From IMG/VR virus record IMGVR_UViG_3300014205_000204, positions 1 to 64,000 of that record: a stretch of 64,000 nucleotides of DNA, one strand, 5' to 3'. The position numbers and the translations under genes are program-made. The stretch is from a virus (lineage: Duplodnaviria; Caudoviricetes). Under the pieces are notes generated by a model, which saw only the letters and a list, made by a program, of their open reading frames with translations, was not told the DNA's origin and searched no databases. Of the stretch, positions 1,420 through 9,500 are shown piece by piece (position 1 is the first letter of the stretch; every line of letters begins with the position of its first letter).

Positions 1420-1445
1420 AAAAAAGCGCGTGTGGGCGCGCTTTT
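1420..1445 (-). terminator. Intrinsic terminator (GCGCG stem, U6)
   Basis: AAAAAAGCGCG-TGTGGG-CGCGCTTTT directly after the stop of 1445..1837. Confidence 0.7.
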
Positions 1446-1837
1446 CATTTGGCGTCGGCGTACATGGCCGACATCTCCTCGTATGACCCGTTCCCGGCGC
1501 GCGACATCCTCCGCAGGTACCACGACCCGCCGTCGACGGCCAGGTTGCCGCACCGGCACTTCCTGAAGTCATGGAGGCTGGCGGAAGTGACGGTCTCGCC
1601 GCACTCCAGGCACTTGGCCCGGTTGATCCGCCAGTCGCCGGTGTTCCAGAACTTTCGCTCCTCGGCCGTCATCTCGTCGTGGTCGTGGAATCTGCAGGCG
1701 TAGCACTTGGGGTACTTGCCGCAGTAGCACCGGCGGCCGTCCTCGAGAACCTTGGGGACGAACCCGTCGGGGTCGGCCACGACGGGATGCTCCCGGCCGT
1801 CCTCGCCTGTCACGGTGATGAAATTGCGTGTTTTCAT
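1445..1837 (-). CDS. Phage Cys-rich zinc-binding protein (DUF7695-like C-terminal domain)
   Basis: AKCLECGETVTSASLHDFRKCRCGNLAVDGG matches the common phage CxxC-x9-HD-x3-CxCG-x3-VDGG pattern. There is an extra N-terminal CxC/CxxC. Confidence 0.75.
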   Translation of the reverse strand: MKTRNFITVTGEDGREHPVVADPDGFVPKVLEDGRRCYCGKYPKCYACRFHDHDEMTAEERKFWNTGDWRINRAKCLECGETVTSASLHDFRKCRCGNLAVDGGSWYLRRMSRAGNGSYEEMSAMYADAK

Positions 1838-2099
1838 GTCAGTGATGTTGTTTTGGTTGGTGCATGTTTTGGCGTGAACGGCGGGTGTGCGTGCAATCGA
1901 CGCGCTCTTCTTGAAGATCTTGTGAGCTGGAAGGCACGAATTTAACGTTTCACGGGGGCTTCCACGGAGGTCGTGGCCTTAAGGGTATCATTTGACATTT
2001 ATGGAGTTTTTTTCTGTCCTGGAGCCTCACATGACTTCAGGCGCGATTTTGCCCGGGAATATTCGCCCGGGAGTCTTTTGGTTGTCTCACGCTTTTGGC

Positions 2100-2585
2100 T
2101 TGACGGCGGTTGGACAGGCGACGATTTGGCTCAATGTGAGCAGTGTCACGTCGCATGGGTAAGTCGGCACTTTGTCCCCGATGGCTTGATGCGGTGCCTT
2201 GTTGGCTTCATGGCTTTCGCTCAGCCACCGCTATAGCCACACGTTTTCGGCGTCTACCTATTCCGCCACTGTCCACTCCGCCGTCACGCCGGCCGTCCCG
2301 CGGACGGCCACGTGAGGAGCTAGGCGTTTCCCCCGTTGTGGCACAAGTCTCCGCAATCAATGGAACAACGGCTCTCGGGGGCTTTCTGCCCATGTATATC
2401 TTCGGGCAGGTGATTAGTCTTGCCATGCACGGCCATTTTTGCGGCCGGATTCAGCCCGTGCGCCGGAAGGCGTGACCAAGAGCGGGGTCCTGTAGGAAAG
2501 CCTGGCCGGAAGGCCAGCGGCAGCCTCTAGGATCCAGCCCATGCTTGTCGTGGTCACGCGTGCAGGGGCACGGTACTTGTACCTT
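2100..2585 (-). ncRNA. Candidate large structured ncRNA with tRNA-like core (GOLLD-like)
   Basis: 7-bp acceptor-like stem (2269-2275/2111-2117) extended by a 9-bp helix (2278-2286/2101-2109). D-arm-like UGGCGGAAUAGGUAGACGC and a 6-bp T-stem with UG[insert]CAAAU loop. At least six further perfect 6-8 bp helices upstream, its own promoter, and no credible ORF. Confidence 0.7.
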
Positions 2586-2591
2586 GACTGT

Positions 2592-2620
2592 ACCCTACCG
2601 CGACACCCGCGGGACGTCAA
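2592..2620 (-). promoter_or_regulatory. Sigma70-type promoter TTGACG-17-TAGGGT
   Basis: -35 at 2620-2615, 17-nt spacer, -10 at 2597-2592. It points into the non-coding structured region. Confidence 0.55.
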
Positions 2621-2647
2621 GGGCGCGGATTGCCGCGGGAAGGTGGG

Positions 2648-3187
2648 TCACGTCGTTGCCTTGATCCCGCTGACGACGCACTTGTAGGTTTCTAACCATT
2701 CTGAATGCTCGACGTTATCCTTCACGCTGTCTTTTCCGGCCAGCGTCACGTTCCTGACCACTGACTTTTCCTCGACCGTGGAATTACCGCCGACACTTGA
2801 CCTGATGACGACTGACTTACCGGTGACGATGGCCAACCCGCCGATCGTCGACTTGTCGCACACGATGGCATGGCCACGCAACTTGGACCCATCCGTGGCG
2901 ACCGACTCATCGCACAGCGTTGCTTTCTTCGACAGAATGCATTTTCCTTTCGCGACCGAACCGCCGATGAGGAGTGCATCCTCCCTCACGCTCGATGATT
3001 CGATGGCCTTCGAGTCGTCGAATATCCATGACGTGCCGCCCTGGGACAGGTTATCTGGTCCTTCCACCAGTCCTCCCCTTTCCCCCTTCTTGACCGTCCT
3101 CTTGAGCCTGATGATCGTGAACTCTTCATCGGCCACGATCCTCTTGAGCCCCGTCTTGGCGTCGTCTTCCAAAGTGTATTTCGACAT
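2648..3187 (-). CDS. Left-handed beta-helix (hexapeptide-repeat, YdcK-like) protein
   Basis: KKGERGGLVEGPDNLSQGGTSWIFDDSK followed by hexapeptide-periodic V/I/L repeats. Confidence 0.75.
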   Translation of the reverse strand: MSKYTLEDDAKTGLKRIVADEEFTIIRLKRTVKKGERGGLVEGPDNLSQGGTSWIFDDSKAIESSSVREDALLIGGSVAKGKCILSKKATLCDESVATDGSKLRGHAIVCDKSTIGGLAIVTGKSVVIRSSVGGNSTVEEKSVVRNVTLAGKDSVKDNVEHSEWLETYKCVVSGIKATT

Positions 3188-3228: not shown

Positions 3229-3257
3229 ATAGTAGACATTTTGTTTTTTTGCGTCAA
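3229..3257 (-). promoter_or_regulatory. Sigma70-type promoter TTGACG-17-TACTAT
   Basis: -35 at 3257-3252 and -10 at 3234-3229, upstream of the 3187 start. Confidence 0.65.
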
Positions 3258-3396
3258 GACTGTGGAGAAAGTGACTTTTGAAAAATATGCATATAATGAA
3301 CGCGTACGTGCGTGCTTGCGCGTTCTTTCTTCCCACGATTACCCGTGAAGTTATCAAGTGCTGTGATGGTTGGCTCACTGCGTTCGCCAAGACCTG

Positions 3397-3479: not shown

Positions 3480-4008
3480 TTTACGGAAACCAATCCATTC
3501 TGACGTCAGCTAACTTAGCTGCTCAGATTTAATCTGTTCAGTCTAAGCCGTTATCCAATGCCTACTCTTTTTGAGCCGGTCATCAGATCCCATCTTCAGC
3601 GTTCCACCCAAGCCTTCAATGGCCCGAGCTTCCTCAACTCAAGTTCATGTGCCATAGGTAATTGGTTCCGTATTACAGAATCAAGCCTATGATCTATCCC
3701 AAGTGAGTGCTTCGTGGGGAGGTCGTGGGTACCCGTGGGAGTCTCGTGGGAGAGCTCGGGGACCCTTGAAAGGCCTCTCGCAAATCGTTTGTCAAATGAA
3801 CGACACACCCCTCAACAGGGCCACCCGATAGGCGGTATCGCAAGGCGAAAGTGTGGCTTAAACTGGCAATTTTTCTACGTTGGGTTACTGTCCAACGAAT
3901 ATGGTCTTGGCACTGGCATCGAGGTATTGTTCCCAGCGGCTTGTGCCCACCACTTCCCAAAGATAACTGGTCTTAGCTAAATACGCAAGAGAGTGACCTT
4001 TGGTCCTA
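3480..4008 (-). ncRNA. Candidate large ornate ncRNA (~450-530 nt)
   Basis: ~19-bp terminal helix (3981-3961 with 3556-3537) and ~20-bp internal helix (3776-3753 with 3630-3610), plus several nested hairpins. G-U pairs favour the minus strand. Extended -10 promoter directly upstream; no credible ORF. Confidence 0.65.
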
Positions 4009-4013
4009 ACCAA

Positions 4014-4022
4014 ATTATAGCA
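4014..4022 (-). promoter_or_regulatory. Extended -10 promoter (TGCTATAAT)
   Basis: Perfect TGnTATAAT facing the 3480-4008 non-coding region. Confidence 0.75.
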
Positions 4023-4423: not shown

Positions 4424-6016
4424 ATGCCTTCTCCCATGGAAACCCGCGTCCTCAGCGACCGCGGGCGCATCAGCCTCATAAACGGAGCCAAGCTTGCCGC
4501 CAGCGTCATCGGGTCCACCATGGGCCCGGCCGGCCGCTACGTGGCCATCGAGTACCGCGGGAACGTGCCGGAGATGACGAAGGACGGCGTCAGCGTCAGC
4601 AGCAAGATATTCCTTCACGACCCGGTCGAGGAGATGGGGAACGAGCTGGTCAAGATGGCCTGCCTCAAGACCCTCGCCAAGACTTCCGACGGGACCACGA
4701 CCACCGCGGTACTCGTGGGTGCCCTCGCCGAGACGCTTTCCGGGGCGATGGACGGCCGGCCGTCCGCCCAGGTGATCGAGGGGGCGAAGCAGGCGGTCAC
4801 GGACGTGCAGGCCAAGGTTCGAGAGGAGAGCGTCCCGTTCAGCCCGGATGACGCCCTCAAGGTGGCGGTGGTTTCCGCGAACTCGAGAGAGCTCGGCACC
4901 CTCGCCTACCAGGCGTTCGACGGTGACTATGACCTTGACGTCCAGGTCGAGCTGTCGAACAGGCCGACGACGGAAGTCTCGGTCTCCCGCGGCCTCCGCA
5001 TACCGGCAGGCTACCATAGCGACAGGTTCGTCAACATGCCCGACATTGGCGCGTGCATCCTCGAGGACGTCGCCGTCCTCGCCTCCGACAGCGTCATTGA
5101 GGACGTCGACAGCGTCACGCCAGCCGTTTCTGCGGTGGCTGTGGCGAGGAACGGCGGTTCCGGCGTCACGCTCCTCGTGGTCGCCGAGGGCTTCTCGGAG
5201 GCCGTGAGCGGCGCGCTTACGCGCTTCGCCTCGCAGGGCATACCGGTGCTGGCGGTCAAGGCCGTGGCCTCCGGGTCACGCTGTCATGAGATATGCGGCG
5301 ACATCGCCGCCTTGGGCGGGGGAGTCGCGTACGGCGACAAGAGCGGGCGCGACATGCGCGACTTCACCCTTGGCACTGCCCCCAGGTTCGGCAGGGTCTA
5401 CGCCAACCGCAACTTCTGCGACGTCATGGGAAGCGGGCACGCCGACAGCGAGGCGGTCAAGACCAGGCTGGCGGCCGCCCAGAAGTCACTTTCCGAGACG
5501 GAATCAGACTTCGAGAAAGCCCATTTCGGCCGGCGCGTCCGCGGCCTGAAGTTCCGGTTCGCCTACCTGTCAGTCGGTGGCGTGTCGGATGCCGAGAGGC
5601 ACGAGAACGGCCAGAGGATCGAGGATGCCGTGGGTGCCGTGAAGGCCGCGATGGTGGGCGGCACAGTGATCGGGTGCGGCCAGGCGCTTTACAACGCCGC
5701 AACCGAGCTCGGTGACCTCAGCGGGATGAATGATGACTTCGCGGCGGGTTATGAGGCCGTGCTGATGGCCTGCGACTCCCCCAGGAGGCAGATACTGCTG
5801 AACGCCGGCCTCTCGGAAGACGAGATCAACGCCCCGTCAGGGGTTGAGATAGACCCGATTACCATGATGCAGACGGATTTCAGGCTGAAAGGCATTCTTG
5901 ATCCGACTGAAGTGCCGTGCGTTGCGCTCGAGAACGCCGTTTCGGTGGCGATTCTGATCGCCAACACGCTGTTTTCGGTCTCTTACATGGACCGAGTGGG
6001 TCCATACGCGAAATAA
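4424..6016 (+). CDS. groEL: Group I chaperonin, GroEL-like
   Basis: TMGPAGRYVAI, TKDGVSV, SDGTTTTAVL and RIEDAVGA (D398 equivalent). 530 aa, without a GGM tail. Confidence 0.92.
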   Translation: MPSPMETRVLSDRGRISLINGAKLAASVIGSTMGPAGRYVAIEYRGNVPEMTKDGVSVSSKIFLHDPVEEMGNELVKMACLKTLAKTSDGTTTTAVLVGALAETLSGAMDGRPSAQVIEGAKQAVTDVQAKVREESVPFSPDDALKVAVVSANSRELGTLAYQAFDGDYDLDVQVELSNRPTTEVSVSRGLRIPAGYHSDRFVNMPDIGACILEDVAVLASDSVIEDVDSVTPAVSAVAVARNGGSGVTLLVVAEGFSEAVSGALTRFASQGIPVLAVKAVASGSRCHEICGDIAALGGGVAYGDKSGRDMRDFTLGTAPRFGRVYANRNFCDVMGSGHADSEAVKTRLAAAQKSLSETESDFEKAHFGRRVRGLKFRFAYLSVGGVSDAERHENGQRIEDAVGAVKAAMVGGTVIGCGQALYNAATELGDLSGMNDDFAAGYEAVLMACDSPRRQILLNAGLSEDEINAPSGVEIDPITMMQTDFRLKGILDPTEVPCVALENAVSVAILIANTLFSVSYMDRVGPYAK

Positions 6017-6023
6017 AAGAGCA

Positions 6024-6049
6024 AAAACCCGCGATTTTTCGCGGGTTTT
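6024..6049 (+). terminator. Intrinsic terminator after groEL
   Basis: AAAACCCGCGA-TTTT-TCGCGGGTTTT. Confidence 0.75.
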
Positions 6050-6061
6050 GTGTTTTCTACG

Positions 6062-6070
6062 TGATATAAT
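6062..6070 (+). promoter_or_regulatory. Extended -10 promoter (TGATATAAT)
   Basis: Perfect TGnTATAAT 28 nt upstream of the 6099 start. Confidence 0.75.
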
Positions 6071-6098
6071 TAGAGTAGAAGTCAAAAATTAGACAAAT

Positions 6099-6569
6099 AT
6101 GAAAAAAAATAAACTTCTTTCTACCCCTAGGCTGTTCGTCCAGGATTTCGGCGTCTTCCCGGTAGATGTGCTTGTGGCATATGGATGCCCGAAAGAGGCA
6201 GTGATCGAGTACCTGACGAAGTCAAAGTCCAGCAGGGAGTTCGTCAAGGCCATCAAGAATAAGCTAGATGCCGCTTCGGACGGGGGGGTCGGAGGTTTCA
6301 CCAGCTTTGACGGGCGGAGGTGTTTCCTCTGGCTGGACGCGACCGGCGACAAGTTTGACTTGGTAGTAAACCTGGTCCACGAGACGAATCACATGGTGCT
6401 TATCGGGTGCCAGCAGAAAATTTCGGGAGTGGGCAAGGGCGGTGAACTGGAGCTCGAGTCGGCAGCATACACGCAGCAATACCTTTTCGATAGCATCTTC
6501 AGGAAAATCACCGGTAAGGGCAAAATTCCCAAGGAAGATGACGTTTTAGCTAATCTCAGAAAAAAATAA
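6099..6569 (+). CDS. Putative zincin-like metalloprotein (HExxH)
   Basis: LVHETNHMV followed by a downstream E..AY (ELESAAY). Confidence 0.6.
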   Translation: MKKNKLLSTPRLFVQDFGVFPVDVLVAYGCPKEAVIEYLTKSKSSREFVKAIKNKLDAASDGGVGGFTSFDGRRCFLWLDATGDKFDLVVNLVHETNHMVLIGCQQKISGVGKGGELELESAAYTQQYLFDSIFRKITGKGKIPKEDDVLANLRKK

Positions 6570-9500
6570 TGGCTATTTTCCAACCGAAAGAATCAGAGAA
6601 GCTTCTCGCGTCAGCCGAGAAGTCTCCTACGTTTTATACAGGCACGCCGTCGAAGGCGGACATCAGCTCCGACAAGAGGATAAGGTCAGCCAAGGAGAAG
6701 GAAAGGATCTCCGGGGCAAACAAGCGGCCAGCCACTCCCGAGAAGGAACCCAAGGACTACTCGATGTTCGAGCGTGGCCTGCAGGCATTGGGGGCGCCGG
6801 TTGCGATCGGCTCCGCATTGCTGTCCAAGGCCATCGGGCAGGGACAGGACACTACCGCCTCGGGCCTGTCAAAGGCCATCGAGGACTACCACTCGTACGG
6901 CGACGTCATCAGGAAGGCGGGCGGCGGAAACGCCGTCGGTTTCGCTGGGGGCATCGTCCTTGACATCGCCCTCGATCCCGTCAACTGGCTGACTGCCGGA
7001 ACTACCGCCATAGTCCCGAGGGTGGGGGCCGGCATGGTCAAGGGAGGCGTGAAAGGCGCGGCAGTCGCGGCAAAGTCGGGGCTTCTCCAGAAGGCGTCCA
7101 AGGTAGCGGAAATCACGTCACCGACATATCGGAAGCTCATGACAGGTGAGGTCGCTCAGACGGCCAAAAATCCCACGTACATCGACAGGCTGTTCACGGC
7201 CACTGCTGAATCGACGGCCGAGTTCGATGAGATCGTCAAGCAGTCGACGCTCAGCAAGGTCCTGTCAAAGCCAGAATCGGAGAGGTTGATCCCTACCGAG
7301 GTGCTGGCGAACAAGGCCGTCGAGGCGATGAGGCTGGGCGACGAGGCCCGTGAAGGCCTAAGCCGGGCGGTCATCTACTCGCCTATCAGGAAGACGGCCG
7401 AGGACATGGCTGACGAGCTGAAGAACCGGGACAAGTGGTTGACTGACGGCGACATTAGCGTTGCCGAGGGAAGGAATAACATGCCCGTCAACGCGCATGC
7501 AGAGTCGCTGTCCTCCCGCGTATCGGACGGGATGGTCGGGGCCATTGACACCATAAAAGCCAAAGTAAAATACCAGACGTCCCCTGAGGCGGTGACCGCC
7601 GGTGTGGCATCGGAAGTGGTGGCCAACCACATGGCGTCCCAGAAGGTGATAGAGGCGCTGGATTCAATCGCCTTGAGGTTCGAGGCCAAGGACCCGGAAC
7701 TGTCGGACATGCTCAGGCAATGGGAGCCGGAAAGGCAGCTTGAGGCGCAGAAGTTCATGGACACGTACTCGACTTACGCCACCGGCATGGACTGGTACGA
7801 CAGGAGGCTCGCGAGGGCCCTGACTAACAAGTTCGCCAGGGAAACCCTAAGCGGATACGGAAAGGCGATCGCGGTCTTCCGTCCCGCGATGCTCGCCGGC
7901 AACCCCGCGTCCATCTTCAACTCCTACGCCGGGAACGTGGCGTTCGCCATGCTTGCGGGCATCAACGTGGGAGCCCACGGGTTCACGAGTTCCGTGAAGA
8001 AGTCGATGAGGTTCCTGTACCTGAACGACTTGTCAAAGCTCCAGGAACTGCTCGGGAGCGATGGGATTTTAATGATGGCGGAGAAGTACCCCAAGACGTT
8101 CAGGTCGGTCTTCGGGGTTGACCCGCTGCTGGTAACCGACAGGCGCAGTTTCTTCGACAAGCTGGCTGAAGCTCTCGAGAGCTCGGATGCGGGAAGCGAG
8201 GCCGCCGACCAGATTAGGAAGCTCAGCGGCGAGATGGACGAGCTGGCGTACGACGAGTTCCTCAAGAGGGGGTACAAGGACCAGGCAACCAAGTTGGCGA
8301 CCAAGAGCGCGACCACCATCCTCGGCGATGACCCCTCCATGTCGTTCGTCGTGAACGAGGTCAACGTCGGCGTCGCGTCCAGGATGGTCAAGAACATGAG
8401 GGACAGCGCATCCAAGGCAGGCGCCGAGGGTAAGTTCGCGAGGGCTTTCATGGCTCTGTACCAGAGCCCGATGGAGCTGTACGGCAAGGGCGACCAGGTA
8501 TTCAAGATCGCCACGATGTCGCACCTCGTGAACAACGGCGTAAGCGAGGCGGAGATGCTCAAGCTGGCCAGGCGCTACCCGTTCATCACGGAGGAAAGCC
8601 TGACGAAGACCGGCAACATGTGGTACAAGCTCGATGCCGAGACGGCGATGAGGGTCGTCGACGACATCTACATGAACTACTCGGCCATGCCCGGCTTCGT
8701 GAAGATGATGAGGTCGCTTCCCCTAGCCGGCAACACGTTCTTCTCGTTCTGCCGCGACGAGAAGACCGAGATCCTCACCAAGTCCGGATGGAAGTGGTGG
8801 AGCGAGCTCAAGATCGGGGAGCCGGTCATGAGCATGAACACCGATACCGGGGCTCTCGAGTGGAAGGAGCTCGAGGCCGTGAACGTCTTTCCCTCGCTGG
8901 GAAGCGTGTTCAGCGTCAAGGACGGCTTCCTGGATTACGTGATGACGCCGAACCACAGGTGCGTGACCGCAAGGTACGAAAGCGACGGCTGGAAGTACGA
9001 CGTGAAGACCGCGAACGACATGACGGACGGCGACTCGCTGGTCACCGGGTCCGACGTCGGTTACGTCGAGGAGACCGAATTGGACATCACTGACGAGGAG
9101 ATCGAGAGGGTCGGCAGGTCGTTCTCGAAGAACGGCTGCTCCCTGTCCATGAGCCTCGTGACGTCGCTAAGCCGCAGGCAGATGGAAGTGCTTTATGCCG
9201 CGTGCGTTTCCGGCGGGTCGGTCAGGGGATGGGTTTCCCATGACTCTACGGGATCGTTCCAGGCGCTGTGCCTCATGACCGGAAGGTCAAGCAGGATAGT
9301 CACCGCCAGGAAATCCTGCCTGGGGACCGTCGAGGTCACCGAGAGGAACCAAAGGAAGGCCAGTGACATCAAGACAGAAGTCATCCAGTACGAGGGTACC
9401 GTCTGGTGCCCGAAGGTGAAGGACAACGGGACGTGGGTCGCGAGGACGAACGGCGCCGTGGACATCACCGGGAACTCGTACGGTTTCGGGGCGAAGGGGC

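Follow-up and report, generated by a model that had tools for sequence, protein, structure and literature searches.

Evidence for a divergent, stalk-embedded and split-T-loop member of a phage-borne family of tRNA-Leu mimics

Stable tRNA-like RNAs encoded by phages have been known since the T4 and T5 era, and to our knowledge their function has never been explained. The species 1 and species 2 RNAs of phage T4 (rnaC and rnaD) are small and stable and are co-transcribed and processed with the phage tRNA cluster, while RNA1 of phage T5 (NC_005859, 30501-30644) is annotated in its record as a "tRNA-like stable RNA with unknown functions". GOLLD RNAs can carry a true tRNA in the linker between their two domains (10.1101/2024.12.08.627333), and YrlA, a bacterial Y RNA with a tRNA-like domain, has an acceptor stem capped by a loop and connects through its anticodon stem to the stem that binds Ro60 (10.1101/312249; PMC4201824). 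Here we describe an RNA encoded on the minus strand at positions 2316-2086 of a 64-kb stretch of DNA, which is the first part of the 84.5-kb IMG/VR phage record IMGVR_UViG_3300014205_000204; this whole 64-kb stretch is called the window throughout. Sequence comparison supports well its assignment as a divergent, stalk-embedded, split-T-loop member of a family of tRNA-Leu mimics. The family itself is real, structured and phage-borne, and is widespread in phages and prophages. No homology to the T4 species is claimed.

The RNA spans 231 nt. Read from its 5′ to its 3′ end, with the kind of evidence for each part in brackets, its elements are:

2310..2316, minus strand: outer stalk helix P0, 5′ strand CUCACGU, which pairs with 2086-2092 (minimum free energy (MFE) fold identical to the centroid fold)
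2291..2309, minus strand: side hairpin GGCCGUCC-GCG-GGACGGCC between the two stalk helices (sequence and fold)
2278..2290, minus strand: inner stalk helix P1, 5′ strand or leader (12/13 pairs with 2097-2109)
2269..2275, minus strand: acceptor stem, 5′ strand UGGACAG (perfect 7-bp complement at 2111-2117)
2250..2268, minus strand: U8 G9 and D-arm GCGGAAUAGGUAGACGC (same as the family consensus; match to covariance model R1, below)
2155..2249, minus strand: insert site 1, 95 nt, ending in a conserved CAU (2157-2155) before the T stem (sequence)
2118..2154, minus strand: T arm GCGACG/CGUCGC, with the loop UG / 18-nt insert / CAAAU (match to covariance model R2, below)
2129..2146, minus strand: insert site 2, an ACACU spacer and hairpin GCUCA-CAU-UGAGC between G55 and C56 of the T loop (layout of split-loop members)
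2110..2117, minus strand: acceptor stem, 3′ strand CUGUCCA, and discriminator A2110 (then CC, G)
2097..2109, minus strand: inner stalk helix P1, 3′ strand or trailer (duplex energy and fold)
2086..2092, minus strand: outer stalk helix P0, 3′ strand GCGUGAG (fold)

The core of this structure had been described in an earlier note made from the letters of the DNA, and it held up when the coordinates were re-derived base by base. UGGACAG (2275-2269) and CUGUCCA (2117-2111) form an acceptor stem with 7/7 bp; a tRNA-Leu-type D-arm, GCGGAAUAGGUAGACGC, lies at 2266-2250 after U8 G9 at 2268-2267; the place of the anticodon and variable arms is taken by a 95-nt insert (2249-2155); and GCGACG (2154-2149) pairs with CGUCGC (2123-2118) in a 6-bp T stem, the loop of which is split into UG, an 18-nt stretch (2146-2129, with hairpin GCUCA/UGAGC) and CAAAU. 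The acceptor stem runs on into a further helix, as the note had said, and this helix is longer than the 9 bp that it had counted, with 12/13 pairs between 2290-2278 and 2109-2097. Beyond this inner stalk lie the side hairpin (2309-2291) and then a 7-bp helix of 2316-2310 with 2092-2086. No CCA is encoded after discriminator A2110, which is followed by CC and then G.

The frame is that of a class II tRNA-Leu. It shares with such tRNAs the acceptor stem, U8 G9, a 3-bp D stem with a AAUAGGUAGA loop, and U48, and its D-arm is identical in true phage tRNA-Leu genes that were caught by the same search pattern as the family (L010, L017 and L034). It differs from them in the lack of an anticodon stem-loop, in the G at position 55, in the 6-bp T stem and in the inserts of 95 and 18 nt. 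Neither ARAGORN nor the Rfam tRNA model accepts it, which agrees with its having been called a tRNA mimic rather than a decoding tRNA. Over positions 1700-3000, RF00005 had no match at E≤10 and no cloverleaf with an anticodon stem-loop was found; ARAGORN with introns allowed returned nothing at default stringency and only nonsense calls at lowered stringency.

The same layout recurs in many other phages. A scan of IMG/VR, with the D-arm and a CCAAAT 100-130 nt after it as the pattern, gave 33 viral loci, 30 of which are not ordinary tRNAs. The shared layout begins with a 7-bp acceptor stem and UG, followed by GCGGAAUAGGUAGACGC, a variable stretch and (C/U)AU, and ends with a 6-bp T stem, its UGCAAAU loop and the 3′ acceptor strand. 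A second scan, over one genome per prokaryote species, yielded at least 120 matches, and about 106 of those listed are true members; the matches listed come mostly from Bacilli and Clostridia, with some from Acidobacteriota, Bacteroidales, Syntrophales and others. A strong family match was present in 3/151 Bacilli genomes sampled, which is a lower bound given the strict filters. Among the matches listed for a D-arm probe of cultured phages, 48/60 have no annotated feature, seven are annotated as tRNA-Leu (cyanophages) and two as coding sequences (SPP1); phage phi3T also has a D-arm match, compared at the D-arm only. The member in Bacillus phage SPP1 (NC_004166, L197) lies at ~6647-6756, between genes 9 and 11, and scores 78.5 bits against R1, the covariance model of the canonical family. 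In the SPP1 record, an open reading frame (ORF) called "gene 10" overlaps the RNA on the opposite strand and is flagged for a conflict with its translation, and it is probably not a gene. The scans also returned one locus in IMG/VR (L181) with the same D-arm in an apparent true tRNA-Leu, interrupted in its anticodon loop by what looks by eye like a group I-type intron; this locus is not a member.

Conservation was counted over the distinct members collected, at least 114 in number. All seven acceptor pairs covary among these 114, with multiple types of Watson-Crick pair, as do pairs 2-4 of the T stem. The UG linker is present in 113/114 and the D-arm is identical in 96/114; the family T stem has 6 bp ending in invariant GG/CC pairs, below a 7-nt UGCAAAU loop, and the G at position 55 of this loop is specific to the family, unlike true tRNA-Leu. 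No member encodes a CCA, and the discriminator varies (A in 60, U in 36, C in 12 and G in 6). The earlier note had named helices without compensatory changes as grounds for giving up its proposal. In a 70-member alignment, 99.1% of the cells in the core helices pair, as against 36-44% in slid controls, and 323 cells carry changes on both sides; the alignment was pre-filtered for at least 6/7 acceptor and at least 5/6 T-stem pairs, which inflates the percentage paired and not the covariation.

While the frame is nearly invariant, the insert that replaces the anticodon and variable arms ranges from 41 to 159 nt in the 114 members and is not alignable between subfamilies. Inserts as short as 41 nt hold no anticodon stem-loop. 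Members with near-identical flanks carry wholly different inserts, and insert subfamilies recur across distant sources and hosts. Most members are stand-alone units of 95-190 nt, found in prophages just upstream of and co-directional with HNH, TerS and TerL genes, often beside true tRNAs. Some loci hold more than one match: L027 has two tandem members with different inserts (2777-2963 and 3240-3344), and L164 has two adjacent matches (5845-5999 and 6025-6106), the second being weaker, at 25.5 bits. In another locus (L141), one prophage tRNA array holds both a family member and a DUF3800-XI RNA (RF02975, 56.7 bits, 7409-7458). Eight family loci that were re-scanned with Rfam gave no match even at E≤1, and literature on the loop and arm motifs and on tRNA-like RNAs, terminase, prophages and pseudoknots yielded no description of this family. 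The suggestion of a new tRNA-mimic class thus stands in part: the family has no Rfam 15 model and no description in the papers searched, and it is not unique to the window, since it has 114 members.

The window copy was tied to this family by two covariance models built from other sequences, each of which has its sole significant match in the 64-kb window at this RNA. R1 aligns to 2275-2217 (29.2 bits, E 4.5e-6), and this is its only significant match in the whole record as well. R2 was built solely from eight other members with a split T loop (L009, L188, L199, L200, L201, L203, L206 and L207), which came from a metagenome scan for members with a long gap and from two viral loci. It aligns over its full length to 2157-2117 (33.4 bits, E 2e-7) with 11/11 standard pairs, and the next match in the window reaches 11.4 bits. 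The model has no match to canonical members, SPP1 or T5. When the window T arm was compared with the canonical form, the 6-bp stem was present and the loop was found split into UG, 18 nt and CAAAU, which departs from that form and fits the split-loop subclass. In that subclass, UG (UA in L009) is followed by a spacer of ~5 nt starting with AC, a helix, and CAAAU, with 0-1 nt before the latter in some. Across the nine split T arms, changes on both sides occur at 9/11 pairs of the T stem and insert-base helix (slid controls ≤40%; the alignment was fitted to the model). Because eight other members are split at the same point, the T-loop insertion is a regular second insertion site of the family; the window insert is the shortest known, at 18 nt versus 44-72 nt. 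In addition, the window copy has the family's acceptor stem with UG, its D-arm, an insert ending in CAU in place of the anticodon arm, and a phage location among co-directional genes. It lies outside the usual Bacillota prophage setting in both host lineage and base composition.

The structured RNA is shorter than the ~485-nt RNA (2585-2100) that had been proposed, of which only the 3′ 231 nt are statistically structured. The segment 2320-2084 (237 nt) folds at -113.5 kcal/mol, as against -83.6 ± 4.4 for 200 shuffles (z -6.8), and its MFE and centroid folds coincide. The 601-nt region as a whole has a fold z of -3.5. Upstream, the "perfect helices" listed in the earlier note exist as strings of letters, yet 2592-2318 folds like its shuffles (z -1.5; 14/200 shuffles as good). 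The plus strand of this segment has z -0.7, the MFE and centroid folds of the segment disagree, the segment has no Rfam match, and the ORFs of the region have no PHROG match, their translations being Arg-rich and junk-like. The putative promoter at its 5′ end fared no better: in TTGACG-17-TAGGGT (2620-2592) the -10 element matches the consensus at 3/6 positions only, and a promoter scan did not return it. Since the upstream 275 nt have z -1.5 and the promoter is weak, the supported unit is 2316-2086 (231 nt, minus strand) and not 2585-2100, which leaves one further feature:

2318..2592, minus strand: upstream spacer counted into the RNA by the earlier note, with no support as a structured domain

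The stalk of the window copy is exceptional within the family. Its leader-trailer duplex has -32.5 kcal/mol, as against -17.3 ± 3.5 for shuffles (p ~0.001), whereas leader-trailer pairing among 142 members with flanks averages -8.6 kcal/mol and is at its strongest -18.8. The only other one of the 142 with a long ungapped leader-trailer helix continuing the acceptor stem is L131, on a genome contig, with 13/13 pairs and -17.2 kcal/mol; the stalked form therefore recurs, though rarely.

Searches for nearer relatives of the window copy gave only negative results. Blastn of the copy against phage records and the exact acceptor-plus-D-arm pattern in metagenomes (0 matches) were both empty. Neither flanking protein has a relative in IMG/VR, and a homologue search with the upstream one returned only itself. 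Phages related at 42% TerL identity do not carry the RNA. The contig of the phage whose GroEL is 63% identical to that of the window (L158) stops 2.1 kb upstream of groEL and has no D-arm motif there; its ~1.3 kb upstream of groEL (778-2143) are nearly without called genes and are not similar to the non-coding region of the window. The 95-nt insert has no sequence match to the inserts of all collected loci, the D-arm alone matching, and within the window no antisense complementarity to the RNA exceeds 13 nt, which is chance level.

Among described RNAs, T5 RNA1 is one of the closest. It aligns over its full length to R1, at 21.5 bits (E 6e-5) against 52-79 bits for true members. Like the family, it is phage-encoded and combines a 7-bp acceptor stem with a Leu-type D-arm (CCGGAAUUGGUAGACGG); a large insert stands where the anticodon arm would be, the T arm is followed at once by the 3′ acceptor strand, and the gene lies in a tRNA cluster. 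It differs in its canonical UUCAACU T loop (U55) on a 4-5-bp T stem, where the family has UGCAAAU on 6 bp, and it has neither a T-loop insert nor a leader-trailer stalk. T5 RNA1 counts as an analogue or distant relative and not as a member.

GOLLD RNAs are likewise phage-borne and near tRNA genes, and their linker tRNA is the only real parallel to the window RNA. They measure ~800 nt, however, as against 231 nt for the window unit, and show no covariance-model similarity to anything in the record: the GOLLD-like core that the earlier note had proposed was not borne out, RF02032 having no match in the whole 84-kb record at E≤10. The same model, run over 5 and then 141 Lactobacillaceae genomes, found no GOLLD example, so that the comparison has no positive control. 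No Rfam 15 family matched the 64-kb window at gathering score, nor did any at E≤10 over 1700-3000 except for a chance snoRNA match away from the RNA, and the Rfam group I and group II intron models had no match. Other candidates were rejected as well. A transfer-messenger RNA is contradicted by a negative ARAGORN search for such RNAs and by acceptor pair 3:70, which is G-C and not G-U. YrlA has a different topology from the window RNA, which lacks an anticodon arm and continues from its acceptor stem into the stalk; moreover, the record has no TROVE (Ro60/Rsr) gene, and there was no Rfam match. The VIPR RNAs, with GGYNN repeats and a pseudoknot tail, are RNAs of another kind, as are the tRNA mimics named skipping-rope, DUF2693-FD and salivarius-1.

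The phage itself has only distant relatives: its TerL shares 42% identity with IMG/VR contigs and 28% with cultured phages. Its genome has tailed-phage genes for TerL, portal and major capsid protein, together with a primase-helicase, an SbcCD-like nuclease, RecA and a stand-alone GroEL, and its G+C content is 58%. SU10-type portal and capsid genes are carried by L158, the phage with the 63% identical GroEL. The closest cellular relatives of the window GroEL (4424-6016) share ~30% of its residues and belong for the most part to Anaerolineaceae and to unnamed metagenome bins, which may be taken as a very weak hint, from sequence, of the host. ARAGORN found no true tRNA gene in the window. The RNA sits in an ORF-poor gap (1945-2648), and both flanking genes are on the minus strand:

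2648..3187, minus strand: gene for a left-handed beta-helix-like (LbH) protein, phrog_5070, function not assigned; upstream and co-directional
1445..1837, minus strand: gene for a DUF7695 protein; downstream and co-directional

The sole sigma-70-like promoter match returned by the scan lies upstream of the LbH gene (3257-3229, minus strand), and no minus-strand terminator was found between the RNA and the DUF7695 gene. Given the co-directional genes and the lack of a convincing promoter or terminator of its own, the RNA is most likely part of a minus-strand LbH-to-DUF7695 operon, with the LbH gene the probable source of its transcript. A hairpin at 2052-2071, CCCGGG-N8-CCCGGG, is followed by a U-run on the plus strand only and thus resembles a plus-strand terminator, not one for the minus-strand RNA; at this point no convincing gene on the plus strand comes to an end. 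A second ORF-poor stretch (3480-4022, minus strand) lies upstream of the beta-helix gene, and its fold has z -3.6, with 0/100 shuffles equal. Its Rfam matches are all sub-threshold and chance-like, the top one being DUF805b at 18 bits (E 0.04). This stretch is a candidate structured RNA, in sequence unrelated to the tRNA-like family.

Any account of function has to start from a covarying, non-decoding, tRNA-Leu-shaped fold, from exchangeable inserts at two sites, and from a co-directional location in a phage operon. We favour a course of events to which we give an even chance of being right: transcription in the operon, excision by nucleases, and then a stable, non-decoding, tRNA-shaped handle that carries variable modules. 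The RNA would be transcribed within the minus-strand LbH-to-DUF7695 operon and cut out by RNA-processing nucleases of the host, for which the stalk may be the entry site of a double-strand-specific (RNase III-type) enzyme and the tRNA-like frame may offer sites for RNase P and for 3′-end trimming or CCA repair. Once excised, it would persist as a stable non-decoding tRNA-shaped species, as in the annotation of T5 RNA1. The near-invariant frame would then serve as a constant handle for a conserved factor that recognises the tRNA-Leu elbow and D-arm, and the exchangeable inserts would act as variable modules that give specificity. A handle with modules is favoured over a decoy, a processing signal or a pseudogene because members with near-identical flanks differ in their inserts, because tandem members differ, and because insert subfamilies recur.

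Several points weigh against this account and against the class assignment on which it builds. No tRNA-handling enzyme is recognisable among the ORFs scanned, including ten ORFs of the replication module, and no partner protein emerged from the neighbouring genes, which vary between contexts across the family. With so variable a discriminator, leucyl-tRNA synthetase (LeuRS) is a weaker candidate for a reader common to all members. Full pairing of leader and trailer, and a helix that emerges at the elbow, might be an obstacle to RNase P instead of an aid. A helix leaving the T loop between G55 and C56 would lie at the outside corner of the elbow and may block partners that stack there, such as RNase P; speculatively, this could be why the window copy has a stalk as an alternative. 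As for the assignment, R1 aligns only the 5′ half of the window element, and the window T stem departs from the invariant GG/CC of the family, its inner pairs being C-G and G-C, though L207 also lacks GG/CC. The pre-filtering of the 70-member alignment, given above, belongs here as well. Finally, no close relative of the window copy was found, so that its stalk, the fold of its 95-nt insert and its 5′ boundary lack the support of covariation and are judged from thermodynamics alone.

A different function for the same frame, possible but in our view unlikely, is that of a decoy or sponge. In such a role the RNA would occupy a host factor that reads tRNA-Leu (LeuRS, RNase P, the CCA-adding enzyme or a tRNA-targeting defence nuclease), and the inserts would merely abolish decoding. 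The pattern of conservation would suit such a role: the D-arm, U8 G9, U48 and the T loop keep their very nucleotides, and the sequence of the acceptor stem is free to change. Bacterial LeuRS ignores the anticodon and uses A73 and tertiary elements of the D and T loops, so a Leu frame without an anticodon could still bind it, and the window copy has an A discriminator. That A, however, is found in only 60/114 members, and the G55 of the family departs from true tRNA-Leu. A pure decoy would need neither insert subfamilies conserved across distant hosts nor tandem members that differ. Anticodon nucleases are an unlikely target of such a decoy, as the RNA offers them no anticodon loop as bait.

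Less probable still is the view that the element acts only in cis, as processing punctuation, its fold and stalk making nucleases cut the transcript between gene modules and the excised RNA having no function. The tRNAs of mitochondrial transcripts serve as punctuation of this kind. The location of the family suits it, as members are always co-directional between genes, typically before packaging genes; so does that of the window RNA, which lies between co-directional genes without a convincing promoter or terminator of its own and has in addition a double-stranded stalk. Any tRNA-like fold would do for this purpose, however, which leaves the strict Leu-type D-arm, the UGCAAAU loop, the insert modules and the presence of paralogues in one phage unexplained; and, going by its record annotation, the counterpart in T5 builds up as a stable RNA.

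It is very improbable that the RNA is a decayed or interrupted ordinary tRNA-Leu, that is, a pseudogene or a tRNA from which two small introns are removed so that it can decode. The identity of the D-arm with that of the true phage tRNA-Leu genes and the recovery of a true tRNA-Leu with a group I-like insertion (by eye) would be expected if it were. But in more than 100 members the stems remain perfect and covarying and the loops invariant, which indicates purifying selection and not decay and so contradicts the decayed tRNA gene that had been named as a refutation of the original proposal; moreover, the 41-nt inserts have no anticodon stem-loop, and the intron-tolerant ARAGORN search at default stringency and the Rfam group I and II models were negative. 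The least credible alternative of all is an ornate RNA of ~485 nt (2585-2100), transcribed from a promoter of its own and representing GOLLD in divergent form or a comparable giant RNA with a tRNA-like core: GOLLD and ROOL are phage-borne near tRNA islands, GOLLD can hold a linker tRNA, the 601-nt region has z -3.5 and a second candidate structured RNA lies nearby, but RF02032 and all other Rfam families are without a match, the fold signal comes wholly from the 3′ 237 nt (z -6.8, as against -1.5 for the 5′ 275 nt), the promoter match is weak, and the family of the core consists mostly of stand-alone units of 95-190 nt.

The handle-with-modules account can be carried further, to a tentative reading that we think rather unlikely, in which the family would be a natural "tRNA scaffold" platform. 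The handle would recruit one conserved reader in the cell for the tRNA elbow and D-arm, and modules in the two sockets, at the anticodon-arm site and between G55 and C56, would direct this reader to different targets. On this tentative reading, phages would possess a programmable RNA adaptor system with a logic like that of Y RNAs or guide RNAs, and the window copy would be a form of it, tethered to a longer transcript by its stalk, in a lineage far from the Bacillota phages that supply most members.

Phage tRNA-like stable RNAs of the T4 and T5 kind are shown by the window to have a much larger and more strictly defined family in their company, one that extends past the phages of Gram-positive bacteria to a phage of 58% G+C with SU10-like structural genes. 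In this family the T loop provides a second regular site for insertions, and the frame can be embedded in a leader-trailer stalk. For annotators, the practical consequence is that ORFs should no longer be called across these loci, as happened with SPP1 "gene 10". Because SPP1, a model phage, carries a member, the function of the family is genetically testable. The extreme conservation of the frame points to a specific cellular reader of the tRNA-Leu shape. If the combination of a constant handle with exchangeable modules is true, it would extend modular regulatory RNAs by a further class and give engineered tRNA scaffolds a precedent in nature.

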